From an uncultured Gammaproteobacteria bacterium (GTDB lineage: Bacteria; Patescibacteriota; Microgenomatia; Levybacterales; UBA12049): a DNA stretch of 64,000 nucleotides. Every line of letters begins with the position of its first letter. The stretch's first letter is position 1. Both the position numbers and the translations under genes were made by a program. This document shows, piece after piece, positions 3,758-52,027 of the stretch. Where the stretch lies: contig CAZWXQ010000004.1 of the NCBI GenBank assembly GCA_964637955.1, positions 11,368 to 75,367 on the forward strand, in the 5' to 3' direction. The notes under the pieces are model-generated. The model made no database searches, was not told the origin of the DNA, and saw only the letters and a list, made by a program, of their open reading frames with translations.

Positions 3758-5068
3758 TTAAAGTAAGCTTTCCTGCTCTACTTTTTCATCCCCTGAACTC
3801 TGCTTTGCAGAATCAATTTTTACTACACCAAATTCTCCATCATATCCTGGAGAAATGGAAATATTTCCATTTCTTACCTTGAGAATTGCATCTGCGATAT
3901 TTTTTCCTGCGACTTTTTCTATTTTATCAATCGGAGTTTTTAAAAGAATTTCAAACTCTGGAGCAATATTTTCAATCATATTTTCAAACATCGCAATTAC
4001 TTTCACGCTGGCTGGAGCCACATGCATCGTCTCAGCAATTATTTCATTTAGTGGAACCAGCTTTGCAAAAGGAGGATGATTCTTTGCAGGATCAGCGATC
4101 CATTTCACTCCACTCTTACCTGTATTCTCCGCTACTTTTTCAGGACTTTTCGCTAAGTCTTCAACCCGCTCCATTACCCCAATCGTTAAACCACGACCAC
4201 AAACAGGACAAGTAGTTCCCTTTAATTTGGTGTCTTCTGGGGAATAAACAATCTTACAATTCCTGTGTCCTGTGTAATGATATTTACCTTCTTCGGGATA
4301 AAATTCAATGGTATAAGCAATTCTATTTTCCCCACCTTTTCGCATAATTGCACGTTTTATATTTTCAAAGCTCAAATCCTCAAGCTCAAAAACTGTACTC
4401 TCTCTTCCCATTTTGATGGGACTATGTGAATCTGAAAATGAAAGAATCGAGCGTTTTTCAAGCTCTGGAATTCTCCAGTTCATAGCTGGATCTGAAGACA
4501 AACCCGTTTCAATTCCATAAATATACTTACTCATATCTCCAAAGCATTCATCTATGGAATCGAATCCTGACATAGAGCCATAAAGAGAAAACCAGGGTGT
4601 CCAAACGTGACAAGGAATAAGAAAACTTCGATCATCAATTTCCATTAACATTTCTAAAAGATCTGGAGGTTTTATGCCGACAATAGGTCTTCCATCTGAC
4701 CTCAGATTCGCTCCCCTTTTCTGCAAAGCAGAATTGAATTTTTCCGCAGTTTCAATATTGGGAACAAATAAAAGACAGTGAATTCTGTGGGCTTTTCCAG
4801 CCTGAGAATAAATACTACTTACTTCAACTGAAAGAATAAATTTCGGATCCAACTCATCAGTAGAATTTTTAAGTGAATAGACTCCATCTCCTGACTCCTG
4901 CAGATTACTTTTAATTTCACGAATCCACATTGGATGTGTCCAATCCCCTGTCGTTAAAAGCCTCATTCCTTTTTGGCGGGCGAACTTCTTCATCACAGAA
5001 AGAGTCATATTCTGAGAAACAGCGCGTGAGTATTTACTATGTAAATGCAGGTCTGCTATGACTTCCAC
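3758..5068 (-). CDS. PHP-domain metal-dependent nuclease, endonuclease Q-like (uncharacterised TIGR00375-type family)
   Basis: N-terminal IADLHLHSKYS (PHP His motif). C-terminal C-x20-CPVCG zinc-finger-like element. About 430 aa, matching the EndoQ architecture. Confidence 0.55.
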   Translation of the reverse strand: MEVIADLHLHSKYSRAVSQNMTLSVMKKFARQKGMRLLTTGDWTHPMWIREIKSNLQESGDGVYSLKNSTDELDPKFILSVEVSSIYSQAGKAHRIHCLLFVPNIETAEKFNSALQKRGANLRSDGRPIVGIKPPDLLEMLMEIDDRSFLIPCHVWTPWFSLYGSMSGFDSIDECFGDMSKYIYGIETGLSSDPAMNWRIPELEKRSILSFSDSHSPIKMGRESTVFELEDLSFENIKRAIMRKGGENRIAYTIEFYPEEGKYHYTGHRNCKIVYSPEDTKLKGTTCPVCGRGLTIGVMERVEDLAKSPEKVAENTGKSGVKWIADPAKNHPPFAKLVPLNEIIAETMHVAPASVKVIAMFENMIENIAPEFEILLKTPIDKIEKVAGKNIADAILKVRNGNISISPGYDGEFGVVKIDSAKQSSGDEKVEQESLL

Positions 5069-5072
5069 GAAG

Positions 5073-5528
5073 TCATTCTACCACAGGTTCTTGTTTTTTT
5101 GAGATATCTAAAACATCAAAAGGAGCTGTCATCTGACCTTCATATTCCTCATGAAGATCTGCTGCTCTATCTCGCAATTGTATTGGGGTAAATCCTGTTA
5201 ATTGTTTTACTTCATCTTCAATTCCTTGAAGATAATTTCTATACCTTTCAATTTTTCCATCAGCTAATTCAGTTACACTATTAGCACGTCTTACTCTTTC
5301 CCTACCCTCTTCATCAATGTAATCAATATGATCTGCTGCTTTCCAACTCTCTAGCAAGCTCCCAACTCTTCCGTTCTCAATACCTTTTAACTTATCTGAA
5401 AAATCAACTGCTGAAATTCCTAACCATGGTCCTATTCTTTGCTCGCCAACACTTATTCCCATAAACCATTCCATTGGTGGTTGAACTACTTCTGCTTCTC
5501 TCTGAGGACTTGTATCCGGACTTGTCAT
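5073..5528 (-). CDS. Hypothetical protein, in an operon with the PHP nuclease
   Basis: 151-aa ORF ending 5 nt upstream of the PHP gene start. Confidence 0.45.
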   Translation of the reverse strand: MTSPDTSPQREAEVVQPPMEWFMGISVGEQRIGPWLGISAVDFSDKLKGIENGRVGSLLESWKAADHIDYIDEEGRERVRRANSVTELADGKIERYRNYLQGIEDEVKQLTGFTPIQLRDRAADLHEEYEGQMTAPFDVLDISKKQEPVVE

Positions 5529-5568
5529 AGCGATGAATTATATAAATTATCTGAAGCTAAAGCAATAA

Positions 5569-5904
5569 TTATGTTGAAGTAGATCTTTTACCCTCCCTGA
5601 TGCCATCTTTTATTTGTGTGAGTCTCATTCTTCTTGCAATGCTCATTCCAGCCTCAAATCTAGCTAATCTCTGCGCTTCTTTTTGCCTAGCACTTTCTAT
5701 TCTCAGCCTTTCTCTAGTTCTTAAAAGTGCATCATTTTCCTGCTGAGTTGGAATTGATGTAGCATTTACCAAGCTTGGCTTCTGAAATCTTGCTTTTAAA
5801 TTTCCTATCCAACCACTTTTGCTCGATTCAATCTTTGGGATCTGTAGTGTTGGCTTATTATCAACTGTTACTTGAGGAACACCTTCAAACGTTGCGTCGG
5901 TCAT
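5569..5904 (-). CDS. Hypothetical protein
   Basis: 111-aa ORF. Basic, with a predicted coiled region. Confidence 0.4.
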   Translation of the reverse strand: MTDATFEGVPQVTVDNKPTLQIPKIESSKSGWIGNLKARFQKPSLVNATSIPTQQENDALLRTRERLRIESARQKEAQRLARFEAGMSIARRMRLTQIKDGIREGKRSTST

Positions 5905-5940
5905 AATATAACCGTATCAGAAAAAACTTTTTAAAACAAT

Positions 5941-6402
5941 TTAAATAATCTTTTCTAGAGTAATGTCAACATCTTTAAATCCATTTTTTCTATAAAATTC
6001 CAAAGCCATATTATTTTTCAAATAAGTTGTAACATAAACCTTTTTTATGCCTTTCTCATTTACCAAATTTACGAGCTCTGAAATAAGCATTCCTCCAATT
6101 CCTTGATGACGAGATTTGGGACTAACTCCCATATTTTCCAGATATACTGATTTCCCTTTTCTATATTCAACTTCTCTTTCCTCTGCAACTAGATATCCAA
6201 CAGGATTTTCATCTTCTTCTGCTATTAACACATATGAATTTTCAATTCCCAATAAATCAGAAAAATATTTATTCCCTTTTTCAGATAGAGGCCAATCTAA
6301 ATCTAATCCCGAATCATACTTCTGAGTCTCAATAAATAATTCATTGTTTAATTTTTGGAGACTTAAAATATCTTCTTTTCCTGCAGGTCGAATCTTTATC
6401 AT
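5941..6402 (-). CDS. GNAT family N-acetyltransferase
   Basis: RHQGIGGMLISEL matches the Q/RxxGxG/A acetyl-CoA-binding motif. About 150 aa. Confidence 0.8.
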   Translation of the reverse strand: MIKIRPAGKEDILSLQKLNNELFIETQKYDSGLDLDWPLSEKGNKYFSDLLGIENSYVLIAEEDENPVGYLVAEEREVEYRKGKSVYLENMGVSPKSRHQGIGGMLISELVNLVNEKGIKKVYVTTYLKNNMALEFYRKNGFKDVDITLEKII

Positions 6403-6485
6403 TTGAGGATTATTCTAACACAATATTTAAGGTTTAGGTCTTACCCAAAGTTAACAAAAAAAATAAGGCTTAAAAACAAAGGTGT

Positions 6486-7127
6486 TTAAGAAGGTTTATT
6501 CACATGCGCAACTCTAAATGCAACTGTATCATAACGCTCCCAACCACGCGAAGGCATCGTCCAGCTACTTATCACTTTTGGCTCGAGATTTCCCCGTCTG
6601 ACTCCAAGAACATACGGATGAACCTTTTGAAATTCTCTATTCAGTACATCTACTGGCTCCATAAGAAAATTAACAGAGCTTCCTCCTCTCATCTCATTGC
6701 CATGTTGAATAGCATATTGGAGCGCTGTTTCTCCTGGTACTAGAGCATGCCTTCTTTCTCGTAATGCCTGCAATAACTCATCAAACACCGCAAGTCTACC
6801 CTTAGGATTTGGGACTAAATCTTTTACATTTATTAGGCCTATCCGCAAATCAAGAGGATCTTGCAAAGTGGTAAAATTAGGATCTTCTATCAAGTCTTTT
6901 GCCGCAAAATGAACATAAATTCCTTTCATCATACATTCCTCTAGGAGATCTTCTTTAGATTTACCCCCTATTCTTACAGGAACCACTGCCTTAACTCCTT
7001 CGAGCGATAAATCAAGATTGGGAACATCTGAAGCGATAATCAAATCTTTTCCAGGGAGAACACCACCAGATCCATCCATTTTAAGAGTTTCGTAATAATT
7101 CATGGCTGGAATTATATCCCATAGCAT
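6486..7127 (-). CDS. Hypothetical protein
   Basis: 213-aa ORF with no recognised motif. Confidence 0.5.
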   Translation of the reverse strand: MLWDIIPAMNYYETLKMDGSGGVLPGKDLIIASDVPNLDLSLEGVKAVVPVRIGGKSKEDLLEECMMKGIYVHFAAKDLIEDPNFTTLQDPLDLRIGLINVKDLVPNPKGRLAVFDELLQALRERRHALVPGETALQYAIQHGNEMRGGSSVNFLMEPVDVLNREFQKVHPYVLGVRRGNLEPKVISSWTMPSRGWERYDTVAFRVAHVNKPS

Positions 7128-7141
7128 TTATATTGTCAAAT

Positions 7142-7186
7142 AATTTCTTCTTATACTGAATCTCAAAGAGGCGTTTTATTTCTTTA
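7142..7186 (-). pseudogene. Relic copy of the DNA ligase C-terminal coding segment (FKEIKRLFEIQYKKK). Its stop codon has decayed from TAA to TTA.
   Basis: The minus-strand translation matches the ligase C-terminus EIKRLFELQYVKKK. It lies just downstream of the stop of the 7199-8035 gene. Confidence 0.5.
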
Positions 7187-7198
7187 AAACATTTGTAT

Positions 7199-8035
7199 CT
7201 ATGGCTGACCTTTATCCATCTCCCTATAATGTGCATAAATACTTGGAATTAATGCTGGAATCTGCTCGCCTGTCTCCTTAAGCCTTCCCCCTTTAAAAAC
7301 ACTTGGTACATTATCAGGCGTTCGAAAAAAAGACCAGCTTAAAGTCTGCTCTGATCGATAAAAAGTTTCATGTTTTACAATAGCATCTCTTTCCAAATTA
7401 GATACATACTTTAAATCATCTTCTGTAAGTGCATCTTCCAATGTTTTCAAATCTGGTAAAAAAGTAGTTATGCGAAGATTTGGATAAAAACCCATAAGGA
7501 TTCTTCTTGCATGATCAGTTAAAGTTGTTAAATATACGTGTTTTTCTTTATGTGGAGGCAGTTTATCAAATAAGTCTCTTAGTTGTTTTCTAGATATCGA
7601 CCAGTCATCAACCACTGCAACTGGCCTTTTTGGAACACTAACGCTAAGGTCAGAAATTCCTGAAGGAAGAACTCCTGATGAGCGGATTGCAAATTTAGAA
7701 GAAGGCGGCTTAATACCTAATGCCAATAATCTTTGGTAAATCCAGCTTGAACTCTTGTCGTGGCCATACATTAAGAGCGAGTAATCTCTTTCAGCCCAAT
7801 CAGTATTAACTTTTTCTGCCATTTGCTCTAAAGACTTATTAAATGTGGCTTCATCGATATACGTTGTGGCATCAACAACCCTATTTAAAAATCCATCTGG
7901 AGCTCCCCTGTCGCGATGAAAAGCTTCAAAAGCAGCAGCGGTCTCATCTGAAATCGGCAATTTTTTCTCTTGGATTCTTTGGACAAATTCCGATTTAGAT
8001 ACCTGTCCATCTTCATAACTAACCGCATCGATCAT
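7199..8035 (-). CDS. Hypothetical protein of 278 aa, bracketed by relic ligase 3' ends and possibly acquired by insertion
   Basis: Long ORF with no recognised motif. Flanked by duplicated ligase-tail segments at 7142-7186 and 8058-8102. Confidence 0.55.
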   Translation of the reverse strand: MIDAVSYEDGQVSKSEFVQRIQEKKLPISDETAAAFEAFHRDRGAPDGFLNRVVDATTYIDEATFNKSLEQMAEKVNTDWAERDYSLLMYGHDKSSSWIYQRLLALGIKPPSSKFAIRSSGVLPSGISDLSVSVPKRPVAVVDDWSISRKQLRDLFDKLPPHKEKHVYLTTLTDHARRILMGFYPNLRITTFLPDLKTLEDALTEDDLKYVSNLERDAIVKHETFYRSEQTLSWSFFRTPDNVPSVFKGGRLKETGEQIPALIPSIYAHYREMDKGQP

Positions 8036-8057
8036 AAAATAATTTCCTTACTTACGT

Positions 8058-8102
8058 CTATTTCTTTTTATATTGGATTTCGAAGAGACGTTTTATTTCC
8101 TT
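8058..8102 (-). pseudogene. Second relic copy of the DNA ligase C-terminal coding segment (ATDVKEIKRLFEIQYKKK-stop)
   Basis: The C-terminus of the 61-aa ORF 8058-8243 reproduces the ligase C-terminus at the amino-acid level but with divergent codons. Confidence 0.5.
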
Positions 8103-35114: not shown

Positions 35115-35440
35115 CGCGGGGTAGTGTACAGTGCACGTGAGGCTTAATTTAATGGGCCGTTTTGATAGTAATACCAAAAATGAACTCAGCTATTTCGGTG
35201 AACTCCTAAATTTTATTAAGGACAATACCGAGGGAAGACTCGCTTAGGCGAGAACCCGTAGAGACTACACGCTGGGCTCCTAAGCAATCAAGGATTTATA
35301 CAAAGCTTGCCAAAGGATGAAGATATAGTCCGACACTCTGAGTAATCGGAGATAACAGATAGCATAATCTCACAGGCTAGGCGCAACTCCTAGCCCCGCA
35401 ACAAATTTAATGGAGGCATCAAGCCTCCATTTTCTTTAAT
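35115..35440 (+). ncRNA. Candidate structured non-coding RNA of about 320 nt (class unknown), or a long regulated leader
   Basis: A 450-bp gene-free region carries a consensus promoter, several stable hairpins (ctcgc-ttag-gcgag, ggctagg-cgcaact-cctagcc) and an intrinsic terminator. It may contain a 31-codon small ORF (MGRFDSNTKNELSYFGELLNFIKDNTEGRLA). Confidence 0.35.
35412..35440 (+). terminator. Intrinsic terminator: ggaggc-atcaa-gcctcc followed by a T-run
   Basis: ggaggcatcaagcctccattttcttt on the plus strand. Confidence 0.6.
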
Positions 35441-40468: not shown

Positions 40469-42433
40469 ATGATTGAAAAAGGTCTTCAACCTATATTTGA
40501 CGCCAATGAAGGCAATGGTTCTTTTGGCAAACCTGGAGGCATATCTGACGACGATAGTTATGGTGCTTATGAAAGAGACAAATCCATACCTATTCCTGTT
40601 GTTGTCGATGAAAGACCAGCGCTTGATAGAATTATTGCAGAACTTGATCAGGAAAGAAGAGGTCGATTTCGTCCGACCTATCCAGTATCTCCAATAGAAG
40701 AACCTAAGATTTTTCCCCCAGACACTAAAGAACCAAAGTACTTAGAAGGGTTTAATTCAGGTATAACAGGAGCAAGATTAAAAGTTGCAGGTGTTGATAT
40801 TGCAAGAACAACGATATTTAATCCCCTATCGAGAAACGAGTATGCAGGTGGGACAGAACTTACCCAGGAAGGTATAGAAAAAATTAAACAGTTTTTAAAA
40901 GACAAGGGCTACAGTAATGATGCGCTTGAATATTTAAGTGAGACAGGGGTTTTTGGAAGTATTTTTGCAAACTTAGTACTTAGAACAGAGTCTAATCAAA
41001 TAATAGAAGCAATAAACAATACTGACTTTAAATCTTCAAAAAGAAATTCCTCCGGTTACTATGACTCTATTGAGCCATATTTAGGCTTCTCATATCAAAA
41101 TGAAGCTATAGATGCAAGCATACCGTCTAGTGATAGCAAAAATGACGATCAAAGAAGATTATCAAGAAAAGGTGCGACCAGACTTTTCAGAATAGGCACA
41201 CCTAGAGTTTTAGAAAACTATAAAGTAGCTGATACGCCTATTGTTATTATCGGAGGAGGACCAGCAGGACTTCTTACTGCAAATGCTTTAGTAGATTTAG
41301 GATTCGCTTCTCATAATATTACAGTTCTAGATAAATCGGGTGATTTTGGTGGAATTTGGAAGCAGAAAAATGTTGCGGGAGGATCCAAGAATAATCCTTT
41401 TGACATTAATTTTAGTGGAATCAGGATTGATGCCGCACCAGGTCCCGGATCTTCAATAAGCATCTTTCTTAGGGATATCGCAAAACGTATGGAAAGAAAT
41501 AATGAAGAGGTAGGAGTAGTAAAAGGAAAGGTTACCAGAATAACACCTGGTGATTTAAATCATACAGTGCATTACATAGATGAATCCGGCACTGAAACAA
41601 CTCTAGAAGCTCCGATTGTAATTAACGCTATCGGAAATGGAAAGCCATTACCTCCAAATAGAGAAGGCTATATGACAACTCCAATTAAAGATGGTCAAGC
41701 AGGAATCAGATGGCAGCAAATAATTACTCCTGAAAAAGCTGAAGAATTTAGCGGCAAAACAGTAGTTTTTGTAGGACTTGGAAATAGTACTGCAGAAATG
41801 ATGCAGCAAATTGAAGATTATAATAAATTAGGATACGGCATAAACTACCGCGTTTTAACACACTACCCCTATGAAGCCATTCAAAATCCAGACTCTTTAG
41901 TTAGAATGCCTGATGGAAGAGAATTTAAAGTATTCAGAGACATAAAAACTCCAAATCTAACTAAATTTGAAGGAGATTTACCTGAAATGAGAACTGTTTA
42001 TGATGCTGCTGTAAGAAAAGGAAGAATAATTTCTGATGTAGTCAATTGGGATGTTAAAGACAAATCAATAGTAGCTAGAACTAAAGACGGCACAGAAATA
42101 ACTATTCCGTTTGCACAGCTTTATACTTTAATTGGCTACAGACAAGATCCTGAAGCTCTTAGAGCCATGGGGATGACAGTGGTTGATGAATATACAGGCG
42201 AGATTGCTTATGATTATGACGGTGAGATTCAAAGAAAGCCAGGAGAAGTTGGAAGGAAAAGAGTGCATCCTGGCTACTTCGGTATCGGAGCAGTTCTTAA
42301 ATCACCTTCAAATCCAAATGCAGAAGTAATACCTGGAATTCAACATAGACTTTATGATTTACTTTTTGGAGTAATTATGAGATCAGCTGAATCTGCTGCA
42401 AGAAAAGAAAAACCTCAGAAAAAAAGACGCTAA
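40469..42433 (+). CDS. FAD/NAD(P)-binding oxidoreductase (flavin-monooxygenase-like, two Rossmann motifs) with an uncharacterised N-terminal extension of about 230 aa
   Basis: IVIIGGGPAGLLTANAL (GxGxxG) and VVFVGLGNSTAEMMQQI (second dinucleotide-binding motif). Confidence 0.55.
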   Translation: MIEKGLQPIFDANEGNGSFGKPGGISDDDSYGAYERDKSIPIPVVVDERPALDRIIAELDQERRGRFRPTYPVSPIEEPKIFPPDTKEPKYLEGFNSGITGARLKVAGVDIARTTIFNPLSRNEYAGGTELTQEGIEKIKQFLKDKGYSNDALEYLSETGVFGSIFANLVLRTESNQIIEAINNTDFKSSKRNSSGYYDSIEPYLGFSYQNEAIDASIPSSDSKNDDQRRLSRKGATRLFRIGTPRVLENYKVADTPIVIIGGGPAGLLTANALVDLGFASHNITVLDKSGDFGGIWKQKNVAGGSKNNPFDINFSGIRIDAAPGPGSSISIFLRDIAKRMERNNEEVGVVKGKVTRITPGDLNHTVHYIDESGTETTLEAPIVINAIGNGKPLPPNREGYMTTPIKDGQAGIRWQQIITPEKAEEFSGKTVVFVGLGNSTAEMMQQIEDYNKLGYGINYRVLTHYPYEAIQNPDSLVRMPDGREFKVFRDIKTPNLTKFEGDLPEMRTVYDAAVRKGRIISDVVNWDVKDKSIVARTKDGTEITIPFAQLYTLIGYRQDPEALRAMGMTVVDEYTGEIAYDYDGEIQRKPGEVGRKRVHPGYFGIGAVLKSPSNPNAEVIPGIQHRLYDLLFGVIMRSAESAARKEKPQKKRR

Positions 42434-44787
42434 AGTTGAGCTCTCTCCCCTATTACCTGCTCAATAACGTTTACGTCTTTTCCATACTTAAGACGAGACA
42501 ATTCTTTAATAAGTTCTGAAACTCTTGGATTCATCGCTGCTTTTTCTGCTGTCATGTCTTTAGTCGTATCAAGAGAAAAAGGCGGAACCGGTTCGCCATT
42601 TACGACTGAGCGCATATAGCAATTGAAGCGATCAATGTTTATAAGATCTGACTCATTAAACGTCGGCTGGAACTCGTGCTGAAGATAATTTGCATCTGTA
42701 ACTCCAACACGAAATGAGGCTAGCGTACCCACATTTCCGAAAATAGCATTCTTAACCTCTTCTTCCATCTGCCCTATAAACTGATTGGCAACAATTAGAT
42801 CAAGACGATATTTTCTAGCCTCTGAAAGAATCTGGGCGAAGTCTGGAGTTGCGAAGTTTTGGAACTCGTCAACATAAAGATAAAAATCTTTTCTTTGATC
42901 CATAGCCATATTCTGTCTACTCATCGCAGCAATTAGAATTTTTGGAACTAGAATAAGACCTAAGAAACTTGAATTTTCTTCTCCAATTTTTCCTTTTGAA
43001 AGATTTATAAGTAAAATTTTCTGATTATCCATAACGTCTCTCATATTAAAAGCTGATTGAGATTGGCCTATGATATTTCTCATGGTTTTGTTAGTAACAA
43101 ATCTTCCAAATTTGGATACGATATAATCCAAAGTTTCAGACTTATGAAAATCTGATGTCTGTGCAATCTGATCTGTCCAATAACGTCTAACGATCGGATC
43201 CTGAACGAGAGGAAGCAAACTTTGAACAAACTTTGAATCAGTAAGAACTCTAACAACCTCAATAAATGTACTTCCAGGCTGATACATAACTGTAAGCATC
43301 GCGTTTCTGATCGCATGCTCAAAACGAGGTCCGATAATGCCAGTTTTATTCGGATCATAAAGCTTATACATAAGCCCAACTATACTGGAAACCACATAAT
43401 GCTTTTCTTCCTCAGTATCTGCCTCGAGCATGTTCACTCCCATTGGCCTAGATGTGTCTGAAGGATCAAACAGAATTACATCCTCTGCTCTTTCCGGTGG
43501 AATTTGTTGCAAAATATCTTCGATTAAATCTCCGTGAGGATCAATTACGCCAACACCCTTTCCATTTTTTATATCCTGATTTATCATTTGCTTAAGAAAC
43601 TCTGTTTTTCCAGTTCCTGTTTTTCCGATGATATACATATGCCTTCTTCTGTCATCGTCCCCAATAAATACTTCTTTGGAAAGTCCTCTATATGAACTCT
43701 TGCCCAGAAACAATCCCTCGGTAGCTATATTTGCAGCCGCAGGAGCACGCTTAGAGTTAACCCAGAAAATGTTTGGGGTTGTGATTGCTTTATTTGGGAA
43801 GTGAAAAAGAGTAGCCAGTTCTTCAGAATTTAAAACTCCGGTGTGTGATTTCTTAGGCATAAATCTGTAAACAAACTCATCCATAAATGCCTTTTTATTT
43901 CTAAGTTTATTTTGAGTAAACTCATTCAAGCCTTCGAACTGAGCAAAATTATGCTCTATATTATTTAAATGTGCCTCTGCAGACTCATGTGTAGTTGAAG
44001 AGACCACAATTCTAATTACAGCATCAAATCCAGGTTTTCCGATTTTACTTTCAATTCCTTCCAGCTCTTTTGGATCAACGGAATATTTTGCGGTTTCAGG
44101 ATTTGATTCATCTTTTTTCGTGTGAGAGATATGTGCTCTCCCTGCTTTTTTCCAATCTGAACCCGCTCCTGTAATTGCAATCTGAATTGCTGCTCCCTCC
44201 CCCTCTGTCATCTTTGCAAGAGTTGAAGTAATAGAGCTCATTGGGTCTGTTGCTAAATCTTTATAAACTTTAAGAGGTTTAAAATTTTCCTCCTTAAGCC
44301 TTAATGAAGCAAAAGCGACATGTGAATTCTGTGCAAAAATATTGTAATCATTTCCAACCACAAATCCCTCTTTAAGAGATTTTTTTTCGCTAACTTCTGT
44401 AATTTCAGCATCAGGATAAGCTCCGTTTATTTGTTTTTCTACGAAATCTTTATATTTATTTGGAGTGGAAACATAGTATCTGATATCTCCTGGCATTCCC
44501 ACAATTTCAAAAGTCATCGTAGGCTCTGCATGCATAAAAGAGAATCTGCCACCACCATGAACTGCAACAAAACTTGAGAATAATTGCTCTGCTGCATCAA
44601 TTTTTATTTCATTATCACGAGGCAAAGCTATTTGAAGAAGAGTAGAATCAAGCGCAGCTTCTTTGCTTACTTTAAATTTATAGTTTTGCATAAAAAAATA
44701 AACAGCAACACTACCCACTACTGCCAGAAGAGCAGAAAAAGTTGCCAAGAAAATTAAGAAAACTATAATAGCTAATATATCTCCCAT
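42430..44787 (-). CDS. Membrane-anchored P-loop ATPase of the FtsK/HerA/VirD4-VirB4 (type IV secretion or DNA-translocation) superfamily
   Basis: N-terminal TM helix. Walker A IIGKTGTGKTEF followed by VIDPHGDL. Walker B LYVDEFQNF. RKYRLDLIVANQ. 785 aa. Confidence 0.6.
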   Translation of the reverse strand: MGDILAIIVFLIFLATFSALLAVVGSVAVYFFMQNYKFKVSKEAALDSTLLQIALPRDNEIKIDAAEQLFSSFVAVHGGGRFSFMHAEPTMTFEIVGMPGDIRYYVSTPNKYKDFVEKQINGAYPDAEITEVSEKKSLKEGFVVGNDYNIFAQNSHVAFASLRLKEENFKPLKVYKDLATDPMSSITSTLAKMTEGEGAAIQIAITGAGSDWKKAGRAHISHTKKDESNPETAKYSVDPKELEGIESKIGKPGFDAVIRIVVSSTTHESAEAHLNNIEHNFAQFEGLNEFTQNKLRNKKAFMDEFVYRFMPKKSHTGVLNSEELATLFHFPNKAITTPNIFWVNSKRAPAAANIATEGLFLGKSSYRGLSKEVFIGDDDRRRHMYIIGKTGTGKTEFLKQMINQDIKNGKGVGVIDPHGDLIEDILQQIPPERAEDVILFDPSDTSRPMGVNMLEADTEEEKHYVVSSIVGLMYKLYDPNKTGIIGPRFEHAIRNAMLTVMYQPGSTFIEVVRVLTDSKFVQSLLPLVQDPIVRRYWTDQIAQTSDFHKSETLDYIVSKFGRFVTNKTMRNIIGQSQSAFNMRDVMDNQKILLINLSKGKIGEENSSFLGLILVPKILIAAMSRQNMAMDQRKDFYLYVDEFQNFATPDFAQILSEARKYRLDLIVANQFIGQMEEEVKNAIFGNVGTLASFRVGVTDANYLQHEFQPTFNESDLINIDRFNCYMRSVVNGEPVPPFSLDTTKDMTAEKAAMNPRVSELIKELSRLKYGKDVNVIEQVIGERAQL

Positions 44788-44790
44788 AAA

Positions 44791-45294
44791 TTATGCCTCC
44801 GAAGGTTTTGATTGTCCGATTAAGTTTCTACCGAGATTTTTTATAACTTCTAAAGCTCTCCACTTATCTGCGCTTGTCACTGGTTTTTCTTTATATTGAA
44901 GCTGAGCTGACTGCAAATCCGCAGGCAAATTCCCATAAACTGGTCCTGTTGGAACAGTTTCGGTTACACCAGCATTTTTTGCATCGTGATCAAGGTCTGG
45001 AAAATCTTTTTTTACTTTAATCATGTCTTTAACTTCCCCGCCCACATTTGGATCTGAAAATTCACCTGACTGCTCTATGATAGGCTGACTTTCAAAATTT
45101 TGATTTTCAGCTGGACCCGAATCAATCACTGGCCCAACTTCTGGCCTTGCAGATGACACGCCTGCGTTAACAGAATTAAAATCTTGCTGATCCTCCGCAG
45201 GAACTTGATTTTGCGCCGGCTGTGCAGGCACTGCAGGTGCAGTATTATTCACTGGATTTTGTTGATTTTGATTTGGATTAATTGGATCTATCAT
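44791..45294 (-). CDS. Pro/Gln/Asn-rich low-complexity protein, in an operon with the ATPase
   Basis: 167-aa ORF ending 4 nt upstream of the ATPase start. Confidence 0.45.
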   Translation of the reverse strand: MIDPINPNQNQQNPVNNTAPAVPAQPAQNQVPAEDQQDFNSVNAGVSSARPEVGPVIDSGPAENQNFESQPIIEQSGEFSDPNVGGEVKDMIKVKKDFPDLDHDAKNAGVTETVPTGPVYGNLPADLQSAQLQYKEKPVTSADKWRALEVIKNLGRNLIGQSKPSEA

Positions 45295-45434: not shown

Positions 45435-46751
45435 TTAACAACCGAACTTAAAACCACAGCCACATTCTTTAGTCCTATTTTCTTGGGCAACTTCCATCTC
45501 ACTTGCAAACCTTCCTTTACATCCCGGGCAATGATAATGCTTATCTATCGTGGTCTGCTGACAATCTTCACACTTCTTATTAATCTCATCGAATTCCTTT
45601 ACGCTGAATCTTGCATCTTCTACTAAATTCGATAGCATAGGCTTCATCAACTTAACTCCACTTGAGGTTCCACATCCCACTTCTTTTTTCTCTACTTCCC
45701 TTTTTCCAAGTATCTCAATTTCTTCCTCTGACAGATTCGCTGGAAAAACAAAAACTAATTGATTTGGATTTCTTTCATATTCTGCTACCAAATCATCAGC
45801 CAAATTGAACATTCCATTAAAATTAATTCCAAATTTATATTCATCATTTTCCGACAAACCATCAATTGCTCCATCTATTAGCTGGTCTGCGGATGGAATA
45901 ATTACGCTATGAAAAAAATTCGTATCAGTATGTTTATGGTCCTTATGTAAAAATTTATGTACATCTTCAGCCGTTTCAAAAATCCCTGAAATATCAAAAG
46001 GACTTGCAAGAAAATCGTGATCTTCAAACCCTTTTAATCCAAATAATTCATTATATTCATCAATAGTTAATCCTGAACTAAACCTATTAACCGCAATTTT
46101 TCCATCCTTCCACATAAAAACATCATAAAAATTATATTGATAAATTGATCCCTTCTCGCCTTGCGGAGAAATGGATAAAACGCTTTTTCCATCCCTGAGC
46201 ATTTCTTCAATTTTCTGAAATCCTTCAATTTCAGCTGACTCACGTGGAAAATCAATTGGATTTCCATGAATTCTTCTATAATCCCTGCCTCTTTTAAAGG
46301 AATTAATTGCAGGTTCATTCATATCTTGACCCCAAAGCTCCCCATCTTTCATGTCGTAATAAAAAGTATTCGTCAAAACATTTAATCTCTCTGCAAGGAT
46401 GGTCTGAAGCTGTTTCTTGGTGTATGCATCCAGTCGCTCTTTTTCTTGAGCTCTAATTTCCGGTGGAAGTAATTCCAAAGCTTGATAGGCTTTAAAATCA
46501 AAAGTATGGTCATAGGCAACAATTTCCTGTTTTTCTCTATCCGGAATAGGCGCTAAATCTGCACGAATTTCAATTGGAGGCGGCATGACGCCAGCGTCAT
46601 ATGAAGAAGCTGCTGCTGGATATACCATAAATGACGAAGCTAAGACTGCACCTGCTGCAGTTCTCCCAAGCTTATATTTTAAAGAGTTTTCTCTCTCTTC
46701 TCTTAAGCGCCTGTCTCTATCTAAATTTCCAATTCCCTGCCCGCGTTCCAT
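45435..46751 (-). CDS. Hypothetical protein with an N-terminal signal/anchor and a C-terminal Cys-rich cluster
   Basis: C-terminus CGTSSG...CEDCQ...HYHCPGCKG...ECGCGFKFGC. Starts 2 nt after the pduO-like stop. Confidence 0.5.
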   Translation of the reverse strand: MERGQGIGNLDRDRRLREERENSLKYKLGRTAAGAVLASSFMVYPAAASSYDAGVMPPPIEIRADLAPIPDREKQEIVAYDHTFDFKAYQALELLPPEIRAQEKERLDAYTKKQLQTILAERLNVLTNTFYYDMKDGELWGQDMNEPAINSFKRGRDYRRIHGNPIDFPRESAEIEGFQKIEEMLRDGKSVLSISPQGEKGSIYQYNFYDVFMWKDGKIAVNRFSSGLTIDEYNELFGLKGFEDHDFLASPFDISGIFETAEDVHKFLHKDHKHTDTNFFHSVIIPSADQLIDGAIDGLSENDEYKFGINFNGMFNLADDLVAEYERNPNQLVFVFPANLSEEEIEILGKREVEKKEVGCGTSSGVKLMKPMLSNLVEDARFSVKEFDEINKKCEDCQQTTIDKHYHCPGCKGRFASEMEVAQENRTKECGCGFKFGC

Positions 46752-46753
46752 GA

Positions 46754-47332
46754 TTATTTTTTCTTCCAGATCTTTTCTTTTTGTTTTTCTTTGAAATTAA
46801 CGAATCTAGCCATCGTAAAAAGAAGATCTGACAAGCGGTTAAGATAGACAATTATTGTATTGTCGATTTCCTCTGTCCTTGCCAAATCTACGATCCTTCT
46901 CTCAGCCCGTCTAGCAATCGTACGCGCAACGTGAAGACTTGCTCCCCCTCTTCCACCGCCTGGCAAAATAAACTGCGTTAAAGGAGGCATTTCAGAAGTT
47001 AATTCATCGATTAATTTCTCTATTTGCTCTGGCCTTGAAGCAATCTGTGGAGCTGGAAGAGTTGAACTAACAGCAAGAGAAGAACCAATCTCCAGTAAAT
47101 CATTTTGGATTTCAATTAATTCTTGAATGACCAATTCCCAATGACCAATTCCTTTTTTTGTTTTTTGGGATTTGGGATTTGGGATTTGTGTAATTGCGAA
47201 ACCAATTGACGAGTTAAGTTCATCAATCGTTCCATAAGTCTCCACTTTTTTATCAGACTTAAGAACTCTTTTGCCATCAAAAAGAGATGTTTTTCCACTG
47301 TCTCCTGTTCTTGTATAAATTGGTTTAGACAT
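46754..47332 (-). CDS. pduO: ATP:cob(I)alamin adenosyltransferase, PduO type
   Basis: N-terminal IYTRTGDSGKTSLFDG is the PduO/MMAB signature. 192 aa, including a repeat-encoded insertion. Confidence 0.85.
   Translation of the reverse strand: MSKPIYTRTGDSGKTSLFDGKRVLKSDKKVETYGTIDELNSSIGFAITQIPNPKSQKTKKGIGHWELVIQELIEIQNDLLEIGSSLAVSSTLPAPQIASRPEQIEKLIDELTSEMPPLTQFILPGGGRGGASLHVARTIARRAERRIVDLARTEEIDNTIIVYLNRLSDLLFTMARFVNFKEKQKEKIWKKK
47129..47186. repeat. Direct 10-mer repeat (gaccaattcc x2) plus GGGATTT x3 heptamer repeat inside the pduO-like coding sequence
   Basis: gaccaattcccaatgaccaattcc ... gggatttgggatttgggattt. Encodes QIPNPKSQKTKKGIGHWELVIQ in the minus-strand gene. Confidence 0.8.
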
Positions 47333-47852
47333 AAAAAAATCGTTTAGAAAATCTTAAAGCGAGCTCATAACTTCCGAAAAATAAACCCACAAATATCAAA
47401 TCTCCCATTATTGTATTCCTAAAAAATGGTATAGCCATGAAATATGCCTGAACCATACCATCTATTGTTTTGGGGTATAAAGATGTTGCATACCAGAAAT
47501 TAAAATTTGTAAGTAGAAAAAAGATTATTGATGAAATAATGGAAGCACCTAAAATACTTGCCGTATTTTTATGATTTCTTAGCCATAGCCCAATAATTCC
47601 TGATATTAAAAAACTAGCATATACGAGAGGCGTACTGGGACTAAATCCTAAAAAAATATCTGAAGCAATCATAGCCAAAATAGGAATAATTAAAGCATAT
47701 TTTTTATTAAAATAAACTCCTCCAAACAAGGCCATAGCGGCTATAGGTGCAATATTTGCTGGATGAGGAATCAATCTTAAAAATGCACCAAACAATATAG
47801 CAATAAATGGAAGAATAAAATATTCAATTTTTAGTAATTTTGAATTTTCCAT
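47325..47852 (-). CDS. Polytopic membrane protein, possible ECF-type or vitamin-transporter S-component (B12 context)
   Basis: 175 aa with about 5-6 TM helices. Lies between the DUF4430-like gene and pduO. Confidence 0.4.
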   Translation of the reverse strand: MENSKLLKIEYFILPFIAILFGAFLRLIPHPANIAPIAAMALFGGVYFNKKYALIIPILAMIASDIFLGFSPSTPLVYASFLISGIIGLWLRNHKNTASILGASIISSIIFFLLTNFNFWYATSLYPKTIDGMVQAYFMAIPFFRNTIMGDLIFVGLFFGSYELALRFSKRFFYV

Positions 47853-48244
47853 TCTATTAAATCTCCTTCCTGAGTCATGTAATCAGCAGGCCCAACCTGG
47901 GATTCTTTTCCATTAACAATAAATGCCCAAAACTCTCTTTTATTTTCATCTGCCTGCCTACCATTAATCGAGGTAACCAAGCCTGATGTTACCTGCTTGA
48001 TAGTTGTTTTTTCTTTGAGAACTTCTAATGCACTTTTGCCTTCAACTCCCTGATACGAAAAACTATTATTCTGAGCTGAAACTGTAGGCCTTGAGCTTAA
48101 TTTTTTATTCTGCTGATTATAAAAAACAAATAAGACACCCCCGGCTAATATAATTAGAATTAAAATAATTAAAAATAATTTATTTCTTTTTCCCATAAAA
48201 AAAACTCCCCGTTTGTCCTGTAAGGACTCTCGAGAAGTCGACAA
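47831..48244 (-). CDS. DUF4430-like (transcobalamin beta-domain-like) small membrane-anchored protein
   Basis: C-terminal FWAFIVNGKESQVGPADYMTQEGDLIEWK fits the DUF4430 pattern (W.y.VNG....G....l..GD.I.W). Immediately downstream of a cobalamin-riboswitch-like leader. Confidence 0.5.
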   Translation of the reverse strand: MSTSRESLQDKRGVFFMGKRNKLFLIILILIILAGGVLFVFYNQQNKKLSSRPTVSAQNNSFSYQGVEGKSALEVLKEKTTIKQVTSGLVTSINGRQADENKREFWAFIVNGKESQVGPADYMTQEGDLIEWKIQNY

Positions 48245-48380
48245 ATAGATCTTGCTCGAGAATAAAATAAGGTGGTTTTCCGACTTTACGGTAGCGGCAC
48301 TGTGTGGGATTTCCAGCTCATCATTATTGATGAGCAGTCACCCGTCTTGCCCAATCCTTATTGCAAATATTTTAGTATCT
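48245..48380 (-). promoter_or_regulatory. Cobalamin (B12) riboswitch candidate in the leader of the DUF4430 / S-component / pduO operon
   Basis: The minus-strand RNA contains GGGCAAGACGGGUGA...GGAAAUCCCACACAGUGCCGCUACCGUAAAG, matching the conserved AGGGAA..GGUG.AA.UCC....C.G..CCCGC.ACUGUAA core. The genomic context is B12-related. Confidence 0.5.
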
Positions 48381-48435
48381 AAATAGTAGGCATTAGAGAC
48401 TTCCAAACATATCTCTAATATCTACTACTCAAACA

Positions 48436-50835
48436 CTAACATTCACTATGTCCACATGAATAGCATTTTCCACAACCTTCTTCGTATACGAAACTGCTAG
48501 TTCCACATTCTGGGCAAATATCCATCGTGTGTGTTTTTGGCTTTGTGTCCATGGTTATTCCCTCCTGAAGTGGAAGCTGTGTAAGAACTGTAATTTCTTC
48601 TTTTTCTTCTATTTGCTCTGAGACAATTGGCGCATCAGCTGGAGCTGAAGCAACTGGTGTTACTACCCCTGGAGCGAGCTTATCCTCCACTACTCCATTT
48701 ACCTTAAATGCATACTGCTTAGCTAGAACCTTGGCAATAGCATCTGGCAGAGATCTAACTCGGTTTTCTCCAAAACCTACACTTCTTGCTCCTCCTATTC
48801 CGGAGAGCTGACTTATAACTTGCCTTATCCTCTCGCGCGGCGGCAGGTTGCCTGCGAGACGAAGGTTTAGAGACACCATGCGACCAAGTGCATCAGCCAT
48901 AGCAGATAAATCTGATCCTGGCTTTCCAATCGTGATAAAGACTTCAAAAGGTTCTCCATTTTGATCGTGATTTAATGTGATATATGTGTCTCCAACTGGA
49001 GTTTGAGTCTTATATGTAACTCCTTCTACCATCATAGGCCTTGGTGCACGAACAATCTCCTTAGGAAGAACTGCAGCTTTAGCTTCCTCTTTTGGTTTTT
49101 CATCAACATGAGAAAGCACACCTTGTCGCGAACCGTCTCTGAAATAAGTAACACCCTTTAATCCGTTATCATAAGCCATCATGTAAAGATTTTTTACATC
49201 TTCTACACTATGTCCATTTGGCGCGTTCACTGTTTTAGAAATAGAAGAATCGATATATTCCTGCGCAATTGCTTGAACCATAACATGCTCTTCTGGAGTC
49301 AGGTCATTTGATGAAGCAAAATAATCTGGCTTTGCTTCCCCTGGATGTTTTTTCTGCCACTCTTCATAAAGCGGGTGGAACATTCTATGCTCCCCTAGCC
49401 TGTCTCGTCTGATAAATTCAAACTCATAAACTGGCTCAACTCCAGATGAAACTCCAGAAATCAAACTTGTAGTTCCGGTTGGAGCAATAGTAAGAAGTAC
49501 GGCATTTCTGATTCCATTTTTGGCAATCCTTGCTTGCAACCATTTCGGAAGATTCTGAATGTGATATCCCTGAAGATATTTTTCTTTATCAAACTTAGGA
49601 AATGCTCCTTTTTCCTTTGCAATATCACTTGAAGCCTCATAAGCATTATTCCTGAGAGTTTCAAAAATTTTCTTAATGGTTTCCTCAGACTCTGGTGCGC
49701 CGTATCTAAGCTTCATCTTAATAAGTGCATCTGCAAGCCCTAAAATGCCTAAACCAGTTCTTCTAATGTCTTTTGCTACCTGCTCATTTTCTTTGAAGAA
49801 ATAATACGTGTCATCTATTACATTATCCAAAAATCTCATTGCGACTTTTACATCCTTACCAAATGAAACGAAGTCAAATTTTTCGTTTTTTACATAGGCT
49901 GCTAGATTCATGGCACCTAGATTGCAAACTGCCCATGCTCCAAGAGGCTGTTCTCCACATGGATTTGTAGCAATAAGTTTTTCAAAATACCAAGTGTTGC
50001 TTCTTTTATTGGATCTTTCGAGGAAGTGAAGGCCTGGCTCAGCACTTCGCCATGCTGCTGTACAAATAAGATCCCATAATTCTTTTGCTTTTACCGTTTT
50101 ATAAACTTTTGTTTTTCTTCCAGCTTTTTTCCAACCAATTAAATCTCCATCCCAATCTTTATCATAATTTGGATCATCTAGATCTGGGTATTCTAGATTC
50201 CAATCAGCATCTGCTTTTACAGCTTCCATGAAAGCATCAGATACACAAACCGAGAGATTTGCGCCATTAATCTTAGTCAAATCTTCTTTTACGGTAATAA
50301 ATTCCTCAACATCAGGATGCCAATCATGAAGCATAAGCATAGTTGCTCCACGGCGGCTTCCACCCTGCTGTACAACATCATGAGTTGCATAAGAGAACAA
50401 GCCAGCCCATGTAACTGGACCTGAAGAAAATCCATTAACTTTCTTTACCCTTGCACCGCGAGGCCTTAGAGAAGATAAATTCAAACCAACTCCACCTGAG
50501 CGAGACTGAATCTCAACTAATTGCTTTAAGGAATCAATTATTCCTTCACGACTATCTTTTGGAGATGGAATAACAAAACAATTAAAATAAGTTACTTGGA
50601 AATCTGTTCCTGCACCTGAGAGAATTCTACCGCCTGGAACGAACTTGAAGTCGCTCATTACATCATAGAATTTTTTCTCCCAAACTCCACGAGCTGTTTT
50701 TCTTTCCTGCTTAGCAATACCCTTAGCTACTCTTCTCCACATTTCTTCTGGAGTTTTTTCCAATGCATTACCTTCTTTATCTTTTAAAGAATATCTGTCT
50801 AAAAATACTTTTTCTCTTACGCCATCAAGTTTCAT
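48436..50835 (-). CDS. nrdJ: Adenosylcobalamin-dependent (class II) ribonucleotide reductase
   Basis: N-terminal VFLDRYSLKDKEGNALEKTPEEMWRRVAKGIA is typical of NrdJ. NPCGEQPL active-site cysteine region. C-terminal Cys4 zinc ribbon. 799 aa. Confidence 0.8.
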   Translation of the reverse strand: MKLDGVREKVFLDRYSLKDKEGNALEKTPEEMWRRVAKGIAKQERKTARGVWEKKFYDVMSDFKFVPGGRILSGAGTDFQVTYFNCFVIPSPKDSREGIIDSLKQLVEIQSRSGGVGLNLSSLRPRGARVKKVNGFSSGPVTWAGLFSYATHDVVQQGGSRRGATMLMLHDWHPDVEEFITVKEDLTKINGANLSVCVSDAFMEAVKADADWNLEYPDLDDPNYDKDWDGDLIGWKKAGRKTKVYKTVKAKELWDLICTAAWRSAEPGLHFLERSNKRSNTWYFEKLIATNPCGEQPLGAWAVCNLGAMNLAAYVKNEKFDFVSFGKDVKVAMRFLDNVIDDTYYFFKENEQVAKDIRRTGLGILGLADALIKMKLRYGAPESEETIKKIFETLRNNAYEASSDIAKEKGAFPKFDKEKYLQGYHIQNLPKWLQARIAKNGIRNAVLLTIAPTGTTSLISGVSSGVEPVYEFEFIRRDRLGEHRMFHPLYEEWQKKHPGEAKPDYFASSNDLTPEEHVMVQAIAQEYIDSSISKTVNAPNGHSVEDVKNLYMMAYDNGLKGVTYFRDGSRQGVLSHVDEKPKEEAKAAVLPKEIVRAPRPMMVEGVTYKTQTPVGDTYITLNHDQNGEPFEVFITIGKPGSDLSAMADALGRMVSLNLRLAGNLPPRERIRQVISQLSGIGGARSVGFGENRVRSLPDAIAKVLAKQYAFKVNGVVEDKLAPGVVTPVASAPADAPIVSEQIEEKEEITVLTQLPLQEGITMDTKPKTHTMDICPECGTSSFVYEEGCGKCYSCGHSEC

Positions 50836-50837
50836 AA

Positions 50838-50866
50838 TTTTATTTCAATGTCATTCCGAACTTGTT
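50838..50866. repeat. REP-like palindromic repeat, short form
   Basis: tgtcattccgaacttgtttcggaatc: an 8-bp stem attccgaa/ttcggaat with a 5-nt loop. Confidence 0.55.
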
Positions 50867-50873
50867 TCGGAAT

Positions 50874-51272
50874 CTAATTTACCAATTTCCTTTCCGTTTG
50901 ATTTTCTGCTGATACTACTTCAAGCATAGCTGCTCCCAATTCTTTTTTATTATGATTTAAGCTAAATTTATAATCCCCTTCTGACTCGATAGGAAGTCCT
51001 GCAAGCTCTACTATTAAATTATTTTTGCCATTTTCCCCAGTTGTACTATTTAGATTAAAAGAAGCAATCTCTTTCGTTCCTTTTTTAAAACTTAAATCAA
51101 GTTTATATTCTGTAAATGTTTCTCCACTTATAGTTGCTACAAAAAATGCTCTGACAAGTGTCGTTGGAAAAGTGACAACATTTAATTTGTCAAAAATTCC
51201 ATCAATACTTAGCTTCCCTTCTCGGGATACTGATGCATAGTCTGATAATGTTATTAAATTTACTTTTAACAT
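50874..51272 (-). CDS. Hypothetical protein between nrdR and nrdJ
   Basis: 132-aa ORF. Confidence 0.5.
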   Translation of the reverse strand: MLKVNLITLSDYASVSREGKLSIDGIFDKLNVVTFPTTLVRAFFVATISGETFTEYKLDLSFKKGTKEIASFNLNSTTGENGKNNLIVELAGLPIESEGDYKFSLNHNKKELGAAMLEVVSAENQTERKLVN

Positions 51273-51275
51273 ATT

Positions 51276-51725
51276 TTAATTAGTTAGTTTTTTTACTTCT
51301 TTCTCAAAATCTTCTATGTCTACAAACCTTTTGAAGACGCTAGAAAACCTTATGTATGCTATTTTATCAAGCTTCTTAAGTCTGATAGAAACTAATTGCC
51401 CGATTTTCTTACTGTCTACTTCTACAGACTCCCCACCTCGAAGTTCTCTTTCTATTTCAGTAACGATTTTTTCAACATCGTCTACTGTAACTGTAGTTTT
51501 CTCACAAGATCTAAGTATTCCATTTTTTAATTTGTCGCGGTCAAATTGTTCGCGTCTTCCGTCTTTCTTAATAACAACAAGATTAATGTTTTCTACTCTC
51601 TCATAAGTAGTAAATCTTTTCTCACACTTAACGCAATTACGTCTTCTTCTGATTGTTTCTAAATCTTCAGAATCCCTAGTCTCTACAACCTCTGTTTCTC
51701 TTGATCCGCAATATGGACATTTCAT
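51276..51725 (-). CDS. nrdR: Transcriptional repressor NrdR
   Basis: MKCPYCGSRETEVVETRDSEDLETIRRRRNCVKCEKRFTTYE (zinc ribbon plus ATP-cone). 149 aa. Confidence 0.9.
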   Translation of the reverse strand: MKCPYCGSRETEVVETRDSEDLETIRRRRNCVKCEKRFTTYERVENINLVVIKKDGRREQFDRDKLKNGILRSCEKTTVTVDDVEKIVTEIERELRGGESVEVDSKKIGQLVSIRLKKLDKIAYIRFSSVFKRFVDIEDFEKEVKKLTN

Positions 51726-51810
51726 ATTTGTTTATTTCCTGGGCAAAAAGTCAATGTTCCGGCACTCTCCTAAACCTGCTTTGTTAAAATTGAAATCTAT
51801 ATGATTCAAT

Positions 51811-51826
51811 TCTAGGAGCACTAAAT
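51811..51826. promoter_or_regulatory. Candidate NrdR box (palindrome gCACTAaatcTAGTGc) upstream of the nrdR-nrdJ operon
   Basis: Resembles the NrdR operator consensus acaCwAtATwGtgt. A weaker second candidate sits at 51937-51950 (cacaaaaatagtg). Confidence 0.35.
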
Positions 51827-52027
51827 CTAGTGCCAAGATTGATCTTATGACGCTACTAGCGGGGTGTCAACTACTAATAACTGGATCAAAAATAGTCAAG
51901 TTAAAAATTAGCCTCACTTTTTAAATCATTTAAAAAATCACAAAAATAGTGCAAAAAAATGGGTAAAATTTATAACAAGATCTCTTAAGTTAAGAGTAAT
52001 AAATTACATCAATTTAGATATTTTTAA

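Follow-up and report, generated by a model that had tools for sequence, protein, structure and literature searches.

The subject of this report is a cobalamin (vitamin B12) locus in a 64,000-nucleotide (nt) stretch of DNA, hereafter the window, from contig CAZWXQ010000004.1 (positions 11,368 to 75,367 of assembly GCA_964637955.1), which was deposited as an uncultured Gammaproteobacteria bacterium and is placed by GTDB within the Levybacterales of the Patescibacteriota. The last gene of the locus encodes a protein of 438 amino acids (aa), here called X, and is the main concern of this study. The minus strand at 45435–51725 carries seven consecutive open reading frames (ORFs) in the order nrdR, a DUF6941 gene, class II nrdJ, a DUF4430 gene, a DUF6580 gene, pduO and X. 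All seven genes listed in an earlier note on this DNA were confirmed as ORFs; the range given there (46754–51725) covers six of them, and X lies outside it at 45435–46751. Analysis with Pfam and NCBIfam assigned six of the seven proteins to families above the respective cut-offs, and X matched no family.

The first gene, nrdR (51276–51725, 149 aa), encodes a transcriptional repressor of ribonucleotide reductase genes in which both the N-terminal zinc ribbon (Zn_ribbon_NrdR) and the ATP-cone were found by Pfam, and which scored 185.8 bits against TIGR00244 (cut-off 124.65). It is followed by the DUF6941 gene (50874–51272, 132 aa; PF22091, 57.9 bits, cut-off 27) and by nrdJ (48436–50835, 799 aa), whose product is by family an adenosylcobalamin-dependent class II ribonucleotide reductase (TIGR02504, NrdJ_Z equivalog, 590.3 bits, cut-off 399.95). 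The Pfam domains Ribonuc_red_lgN, Ribonuc_red_lgC (the reductase barrel; E value, 2e-121) and TSCPD were found in NrdJ, and its translation ends in a Cys-rich tail, CPECG...CGKCYSCGHSEC. The DUF4430 gene (47831–48196; PF14478, 52.1 bits, cut-off 23.8) encodes a protein of 121 aa with an N-terminal membrane anchor when read from the ATG at 48196, which is the start called in an identical public contig, not the TTG at 48244. The DUF6580 gene (47325–47852) encodes a membrane protein of 175 aa (PF20221, 168.7 bits, cut-off 27; E value, 1.6e-49), and pduO (46754–47332) encodes a PduO-type cob(I)alamin adenosyltransferase of 192 aa (TIGR00636, 186.3 bits, cut-off 108.45; PF01923, 191.4 bits, cut-off 24; E value, 1.7e-56).

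The DUF4430 and DUF6580 genes overlap by 22 nt, DUF6580 and pduO overlap by 8 nt, and pduO and X are separated by 2 nt. Because of these overlapping or abutting junctions, the four genes are considered to form one operon. Farther upstream, the DUF6941 gene begins 3 nt after nrdR and ends 38 nt before nrdJ. On balance, we favor the reading that the region consists of two units, namely nrdR–DUF6941–nrdJ and a class II cobalamin riboswitch followed by the four coupled genes. The class II nrdJ, the riboswitch, the uptake-type genes and pduO bear out the description of the locus in the earlier note as centered on B12.

The riboswitch was not detected when the whole window was searched at the Rfam gathering thresholds, which returned only a group I intron and two tRNAs. 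A relaxed Rfam scan of the 191-nt spacer between nrdJ and the DUF4430 gene located an AdoCbl-II (RF01689) aptamer at 48267–48361 on the minus strand, with 26.9 bits against a gathering cut-off of 36.5 (E value, 7e-4). This low score is attributed to an additional hairpin of approximately 25 nt within a variable-length loop of the window copy. Eight related loci (L003, L008, L009, L011–L014, and L016) have an orthologous site behind nrdJ that scored above the cut-off, at 38.7–57.2 bits, including 40.2 bits for L003, a relative with 72% identity. A covariance model of our own, built from ten sites, recognized the window site at 48265–48365 (minus strand) with 58.6 bits (E value, 2e-14) and retrieved 82 sites from 76 sources. 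The core common to the aligned sites is GUGCCGCUAC.GU.AAAG.C.GAAAACC.

Covariation in the 82 sites also supported the aptamer. With the alignment fitted to the model, and hence biased toward the structure, 91.9% of cells were paired, compared to 33–41% when the partners were slid; 341 cells were changed on both sides, compared to 106 in shuffles, and changes on both sides occurred in 12 of 18 pairs. These results indicate that the riboswitch is real, as an aptamer defined by sequence and covariation, as the earlier note had proposed. The remainder of the leader (48197–48264, minus strand), read from the sequence and a single-sequence fold, comprises an expression platform with two hairpins, a GGGGAG motif and a T run before the ATG. 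Class II switches include types selective for hydroxo- or methylcobalamin (Cbl-IIa) and for adenosylcobalamin (Cbl-IIb) (PMC7367189). The window copy resembles RF01689 and these types in core sequence and helices, with orthologues that pass the cut-off and helices that covary; it differs by the extra hairpin and the score below the cut-off, and the lineage differs in that two sequence subtypes hold two positions of one operon.

The genomic context of X was determined from five identity-based look-ups and a metagenome scan that added 59 loci, with tblastn searches using the window proteins combined with the riboswitch model. The scan used a sub-alignment sharing the motif Y[QK]HNFYD, and the metagenome loci are therefore biased toward one part of the X family. 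The collection comprised 61 non-redundant loci, 53 of which had enough upstream sequence to be informative. X directly followed pduO down to 35% identity in the look-ups, and an AdoCbl-II riboswitch lay ahead of X in 51 of the 53 informative loci, which upholds the earlier proposal of the 438-aa gene as a B12-associated candidate. In 19 loci the arrangement was that of the window, switch–pduO–X with genes abutting or overlapping. In 32 loci the switch stood directly upstream of X: 13 of these had a second switch farther upstream, before pduO or the uptake genes; eight had the order nrdJ–pduO–switch–X, with X as the sole regulated gene; and three had no pduO upstream of X. Two of the last three (L081 and L086) had neither pduO nor nrdJ within approximately 7 kb on either side of X, and the third (L072) had only 412 nt of contig upstream. 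In L070, the switch and X followed relocated uptake genes.

The switches at the two positions belong to different sequence subtypes in the 82-site alignment. Those before X read GGGUGAA...CAGAUCCCC and those before pduO or the uptake genes read GGUAA...CAGAAAAC, and both subtypes occurred in one operon in 13 loci. The distinct subtype of the X switch suggests that it has long been maintained separately. X went undetected by tblastn in 13 loci. In 12 of them, pduO or the second switch was followed by a gene for a diverged protein that shares the Cys loop and the ribbon variants of X; in the thirteenth (L022), an ORF scan found nothing behind the second switch. Comparison with the X profile by hhalign gave a probability of 100% (E value, 2.5e-39) for one diverged subfamily and 97% over 48 columns for another. 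With these diverged genes filling the loci missed by tblastn, pduO has an X-type gene behind it in almost all loci examined. The synteny of partner genes, whose absence would have refuted the proposal of the earlier note, holds for X and pduO; for DUF6941 and nrdJ it is confined to Levybacteria.

The X family proved to be large. A word-indexed homologue search returned only 14–15 relatives, even with a 51-sequence profile, and an exhaustive profile search was needed, which yielded 533 cluster representatives at E values up to 1e-3 and 229 at E values up to 1e-30. None of them was annotated. X matched no Pfam, NCBIfam, or PHROG family, 51 diverse members shared no Pfam family, and no relative was found in viral contigs. 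Single-sequence searches of the PDB gave nothing for the DUF6580 or DUF6941 proteins and chance-level matches for X, and the PDB profile matches of X were confined to its zinc ribbon, with none covering the core. PAS-type domains were the only fold matches of X.

X is composed of a non-conserved N-terminal region of 70 aa, a core of approximately 270 residues with a PAS-like sheet and helices, a Cys loop, and a C-terminal zinc ribbon. The core contains invariant E121, G155, R170, E171, Y204, D210, and R223. X also carries a PFSVSEFG-type motif (FSV.EF). An invariant Cys360 lies in a Gly-rich loop, VGCGTSSG in the window and TGCGxSGG in the family consensus, and Cys360 and the four ribbon Cys residues were invariant in the 51 diverse members. 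A secreted or membrane-anchored X was considered and rejected, as the N-terminal 70 residues with their weakly hydrophobic stretch are absent from most homologues. The four-Cys ribbon occurs in at least six interchangeable sequence variants on the same core and in the window ends in Cys. Among 157 complete members from representatives P0121–P0284, 78 ended exactly in Cys and 106 had a Cys within the last three residues, and 19 (12%) carried a C-terminal extension ending in -AA that resembles an SsrA-type degradation tag.

The C-terminus of X is reminiscent of that of NrdJ, as both end in a four-Cys ribbon with extra Cys residues and a terminal Cys, a likeness of pattern only. The Cys-rich zinc-finger tail of class II reductases is said to shuttle reducing equivalents in NrdJ. 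The ribbons of X differ from this tail in that they come in at least six unrelated-looking variants.

The genes between the switch and pduO are predicted to serve cobalamin uptake. The DUF4430 protein showed weak similarity over 50 residues to the C-terminal (beta) domain of transcobalamin (2BB6 and 5NO0; E values, 0.28–0.35), and it occupies the place of cbrS and is predicted to face outward and bind cobalamin. The DUF6580 protein is a predicted cobalamin S-component resembling CbrT. It scored below the Pfam ECF_trnsprt cut-off (19.7 vs. 30.7 bits), and a profile of 14 orthologues had 6FNP chain A as its sole PDB match, at an E value of 0.0016 over residues 2–88, the N-terminal half. Structure 6FNP is the energy-coupling factor (ECF) transporter ECF-CbrT, which has been shown to transport vitamin B12 (PMC5997447), and chain A was taken as CbrT because of its 182 residues and its label "Membrane protein". 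No BtuM chain appeared among the PDB matches at E values up to 10, with either the single sequence or the 14-sequence profile, and the 14-sequence alignment contained no invariant Cys. BtuM has a conserved cobalt-binding Cys. With 6FNP as the sole match, the lack of a BtuM match and of an invariant Cys suggests that the protein is CbrT-like rather than BtuM-like, which answers the question raised in the earlier note. The similarity to CbrT is marginal, and membership of the ECF S-component family is not established.

The core locus is a variant of a published B12 salvage cluster already known from lactic acid bacteria, and X is the new part. According to Santos et al. (2018; PMC5997447), who cite Rodionov (2009), Lactobacillus delbrueckii carries an nrdJ–cbrS–cbrT–pduO cluster. 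The same genes stand in the same order here: a class II reductase, a small extracytoplasmic protein, an S-component-type membrane protein and a PduO-type adenosyltransferase. The DUF4430 gene was taken as the counterpart of cbrS by position only, the likeness to CbrT is marginal as described above, and no ECF ATPase was found in this window. The passages of that paper dealing with the cluster describe no nrdR, DUF6941, or X-type gene, although these were not searched for specifically, and the word riboswitch has no occurrence in its text. A Lactococcus plasmid also carries annotated nrdJ, adenosyltransferase, and DUF4430 genes in a row; an insertion element follows the DUF4430 gene and leaves no view of CbrT there, and a plasmid search with the DUF6580 protein gave no match. 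The compact layout pointed out in the earlier note is thus real but not new in kind. Literature searches found no paper mentioning DUF6580 and none joining Patescibacteria, cobalamin, riboswitch, and ribonucleotide reductase.

Taken together, the riboswitch unit may act as a supply line for adenosylcobalamin that closes once cobalamin is abundant. The membrane-anchored DUF4430 protein would capture cobalamin outside the cell, the CbrT-like DUF6580 protein would carry it across the membrane, and PduO would adenosylate it for NrdJ. We infer these steps of capture, transport, and adenosylation from the families of the proteins and by comparison with the published Lactobacillus cluster. Judged by its regulatory context, X is very probably a member of the B12 regulon and a working partner of PduO. 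To our knowledge, a step of ligand removal or reduction of cobalamin before adenosylation has been described in bacteria in only a few cases. CblC/MMACHC and the cysteine decyanase BtuM, which remove ligands, and PduS, which acts in reduction, operate between import and adenosylation, and in BtuM and CblD a Cys thiolate is placed on cobalt. As a tentative mechanism, X could act in the cytoplasm through a thiol, making imported cobalamin ready for PduO. Cys360 on its flexible Gly-rich loop might attack or ligate cobalt, and X might remove the upper ligand and/or deliver reducing equivalents, with the terminal Cys beside the four-Cys metal site acting as a redox partner of Cys360. The likeness of X to CblC/MMACHC, BtuM, and PduS would be one of role by analogy, plus the invariant Cys, and the zinc ribbon and PAS-like core of X are absent from all of them. 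With similar caution, X may possibly found a new class of cobalamin-handling proteins, in which a PduO partner with a thiol and a four-Cys site acts in ligand stripping and/or reduction under its own dedicated class II switch.

Several observations weigh against this interpretation. Nearly all loci come from one broad lineage, in which NrdJ is 58–72% and the TrwB-like ATPase downstream approximately 70% identical to those of the window, and the block from DUF5667 to this ATPase is syntenic across it. X itself is only 30–38% identical, compared to approximately 70% for its neighbors, and has thus diverged far faster. Such fast divergence, swappable ribbons and -AA tails would be expected no less of a regulator or interaction protein than of an enzyme. 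X had no sequence or fold match to the CblC, CblD, BtuM, or PduS families in Pfam and profile searches. Two of the 53 informative loci (L037 and L083) had no switch. The window leader folded alone offered no convincing switch mechanism and no clear partner for the aptamer loop, and whether a switch senses adenosyl-, hydroxo-, or methylcobalamin is not readable from sequence (PMC7367189). Moreover, no LSGGQ signature of an ECF ATPase was found among the ORFs of the 64-kb window.

The synteny bears directly on the possibility that X is tied to B12 by inherited gene order only and has an unrelated function. The neighborhood is conserved across the sampled lineage, including genes without a plausible B12 link, and adjacency of X to pduO is therefore weak evidence alone. 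The argument for a link to B12 rests instead on the repeated and repositioned riboswitch. A switch was placed or kept directly before X in 32 loci; its position varies among the loci, from ahead of pduO to the interval between pduO and X and, in L070, behind relocated uptake genes; it precedes X in L081 and L086, outside the syntenic block; and the X switch is a separate subtype. An explanation by inherited order is consequently close to refuted. Alternatively, X might serve under B12 scarcity without acting on B12, by a bypass or sparing role such as a deoxynucleotide salvage function associated with the TrwB-like ATPase and the membrane proteins nearby. The model would be the control of B12-independent isozymes by B12 riboswitches. 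Such a role, which we regard as quite improbable, would suit the eight loci in which the switch governs X and not pduO, and L081 and L086, where X has a switch, no pduO or nrdJ within 7 kb, and large secreted and multi-pass membrane proteins adjoining it. In the lineage of the window, the genes after X invariably encode a small protein and a TrwB/VirD4-like ATPase, and the zinc ribbon of X could bind nucleic acid. However, X and pduO abut or overlap in 19 loci, almost all loci of the lineage have an X-type gene behind pduO, and X resembles no nuclease, kinase, or reductase family; the ATPase is 140 nt and another gene away from X and is equally conserved in every arrangement.

An unlikely but more substantial alternative is that X is a sensor, regulator, or escort, in which a PAS-like pocket and zinc ribbon would bind cobalamin or PduO/NrdJ and control or channel cofactor loading, with fast turnover tying its level to the riboswitch. 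PAS-type domains as the sole fold matches, rapid divergence relative to the neighbors, interchangeable ribbon variants and the degradation-tag-like -AA tail in 19 of the 157 members are all compatible with this role, as is translational coupling to pduO in many loci. Against it, the invariant charged residues E121, R170, E171, D210, and R223, together with Y204 and the Cys, look catalytic, and family searches detected no DNA-binding domain in X. Thiol-based preparation of imported cobalamin for adenosylation remains our preferred mechanism, held tentatively.

Downstream of X, in the window (42430–45294, minus strand) and in most related loci, lies a gene for a fast-evolving protein of approximately 120–170 aa with a conserved C-terminal WLA..ILRQIK motif, followed by one for a 785-aa TrwB/VirD4-like ATPase (DUF8128, TrwB_AAD_bind). 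In L081, L083, and L086, which are syntenic with each other and belong to a lineage different from that of the window, X (at approximately 5400–8100) is followed instead by a multi-pass membrane protein of approximately 500 aa. A Pfam scan of ten X neighbors in these three loci (166–1312 aa) found no family at all.

The nrdR–DUF6941–nrdJ unit would provide a B12-dependent reductase with its own repressor, and it is probably transcribed from a promoter-like site, TTGGCA-16-TAGAAT, found upstream of nrdR (51809–51836, minus strand) by a consensus scan and in the sequence. A palindrome, CACTAGATTTAGTG (51819–51832), sits between the two hexamers of this site. Judged by eye against the published consensus, this palindrome resembles an NrdR box; if it is one, nrdR–DUF6941–nrdJ would be autoregulated. 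The sequence immediately behind nrdJ (48383–48430, minus strand) shows a long hairpin with a T-rich stretch after it, a possible terminator of nrdJ. A simple terminator scan did not pick it up, and the hairpin also gave a chance microRNA-type Rfam match.

The 132-aa DUF6941 protein had been proposed in the earlier note as a candidate for a function associated with ribonucleotide reductase, and this did not hold up well. All 19 species-level genome loci examined, each of the Levybacteria type, have the gene in the interval from nrdR to nrdJ, as do five further loci (L003, L006, L044, L046, and L056). The metagenome scan showed an nrdR–nrdJ junction in 35 loci, 31 of which lack the gene. The window protein is above the cut-off of Pfam DUF6941 (PF22091), and its clade-bound slot contrasts with the phage contexts of other members: a relative with 43% identity lies between an HD-domain gene and a terminase in a phage contig (L088), and another member lies in a tail module beside the tape measure protein (L089), with 94 bits compared to 58 for the window copy. 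No nrd genes were found nearby in either contig. Because other family members sit in phage contigs, the link between DUF6941 and the reductase is unproven. If DUF6941 were a genuine accessory subunit of the class II reductase or a regulator of it, this would account for the clade-wide slot, the tight spacing after nrdR and the conservation within the clade (mean column identity, 66%), but we consider such a role rather unlikely given the absences, the phage members, a fold that is a generic immunoglobulin (Ig)-like beta-sandwich and a literature search that found no paper mentioning the family. Most likely, judging from these sequence contexts, DUF6941 is a phage-derived passenger fixed in the nrdR–nrdJ operon of Levybacteria.

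Other features of these genes were also observed. The DUF6941 proteins of Levybacteria almost all end in K-L-P-N, with a PN end in 105 of 120, and the spacer between DUF6941 and nrdJ measures 280–930 nt in L009, L012, L013, L017, L019, L025, and L026, compared to 38 nt in the window. In L075 (2331–5972), the nrdJ match is split, with residues 1–293 ending at 3209 and residues 290–799 starting at 4437, and the insertion of approximately 1.2 kb could be an intein or intron. Elsewhere in the window, a tRNA gene at 35115–35399 (plus strand) is split by a group I intron (RF00028 at 35135–35352, 71.9 bits). Excision of 35145–35362 produced a tRNA recognized by ARAGORN with the anticodon CAU, and the unspliced gene was invisible to that program. 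The last nucleotide of the 5′ exon at this junction is U, and that of the intron is G.

Riboswitch-based membership of a regulon is among the most reliable routes to the role of an unknown gene. Here, the regulon link points to a large unannotated family, with 533 cluster representatives, as a missing part of B12 handling in organisms unable to make B12 and reliant on it for DNA synthesis. The presence of two class II switch subtypes in one operon also offers a natural system for asking whether different forms of cobalamin are sensed separately. Should X indeed process or reduce cobalamin for PduO, the gap that these bacteria show between import and adenosylation would be closed, and X could be tested as a candidate for the bacterial equivalent of the human CblC step.

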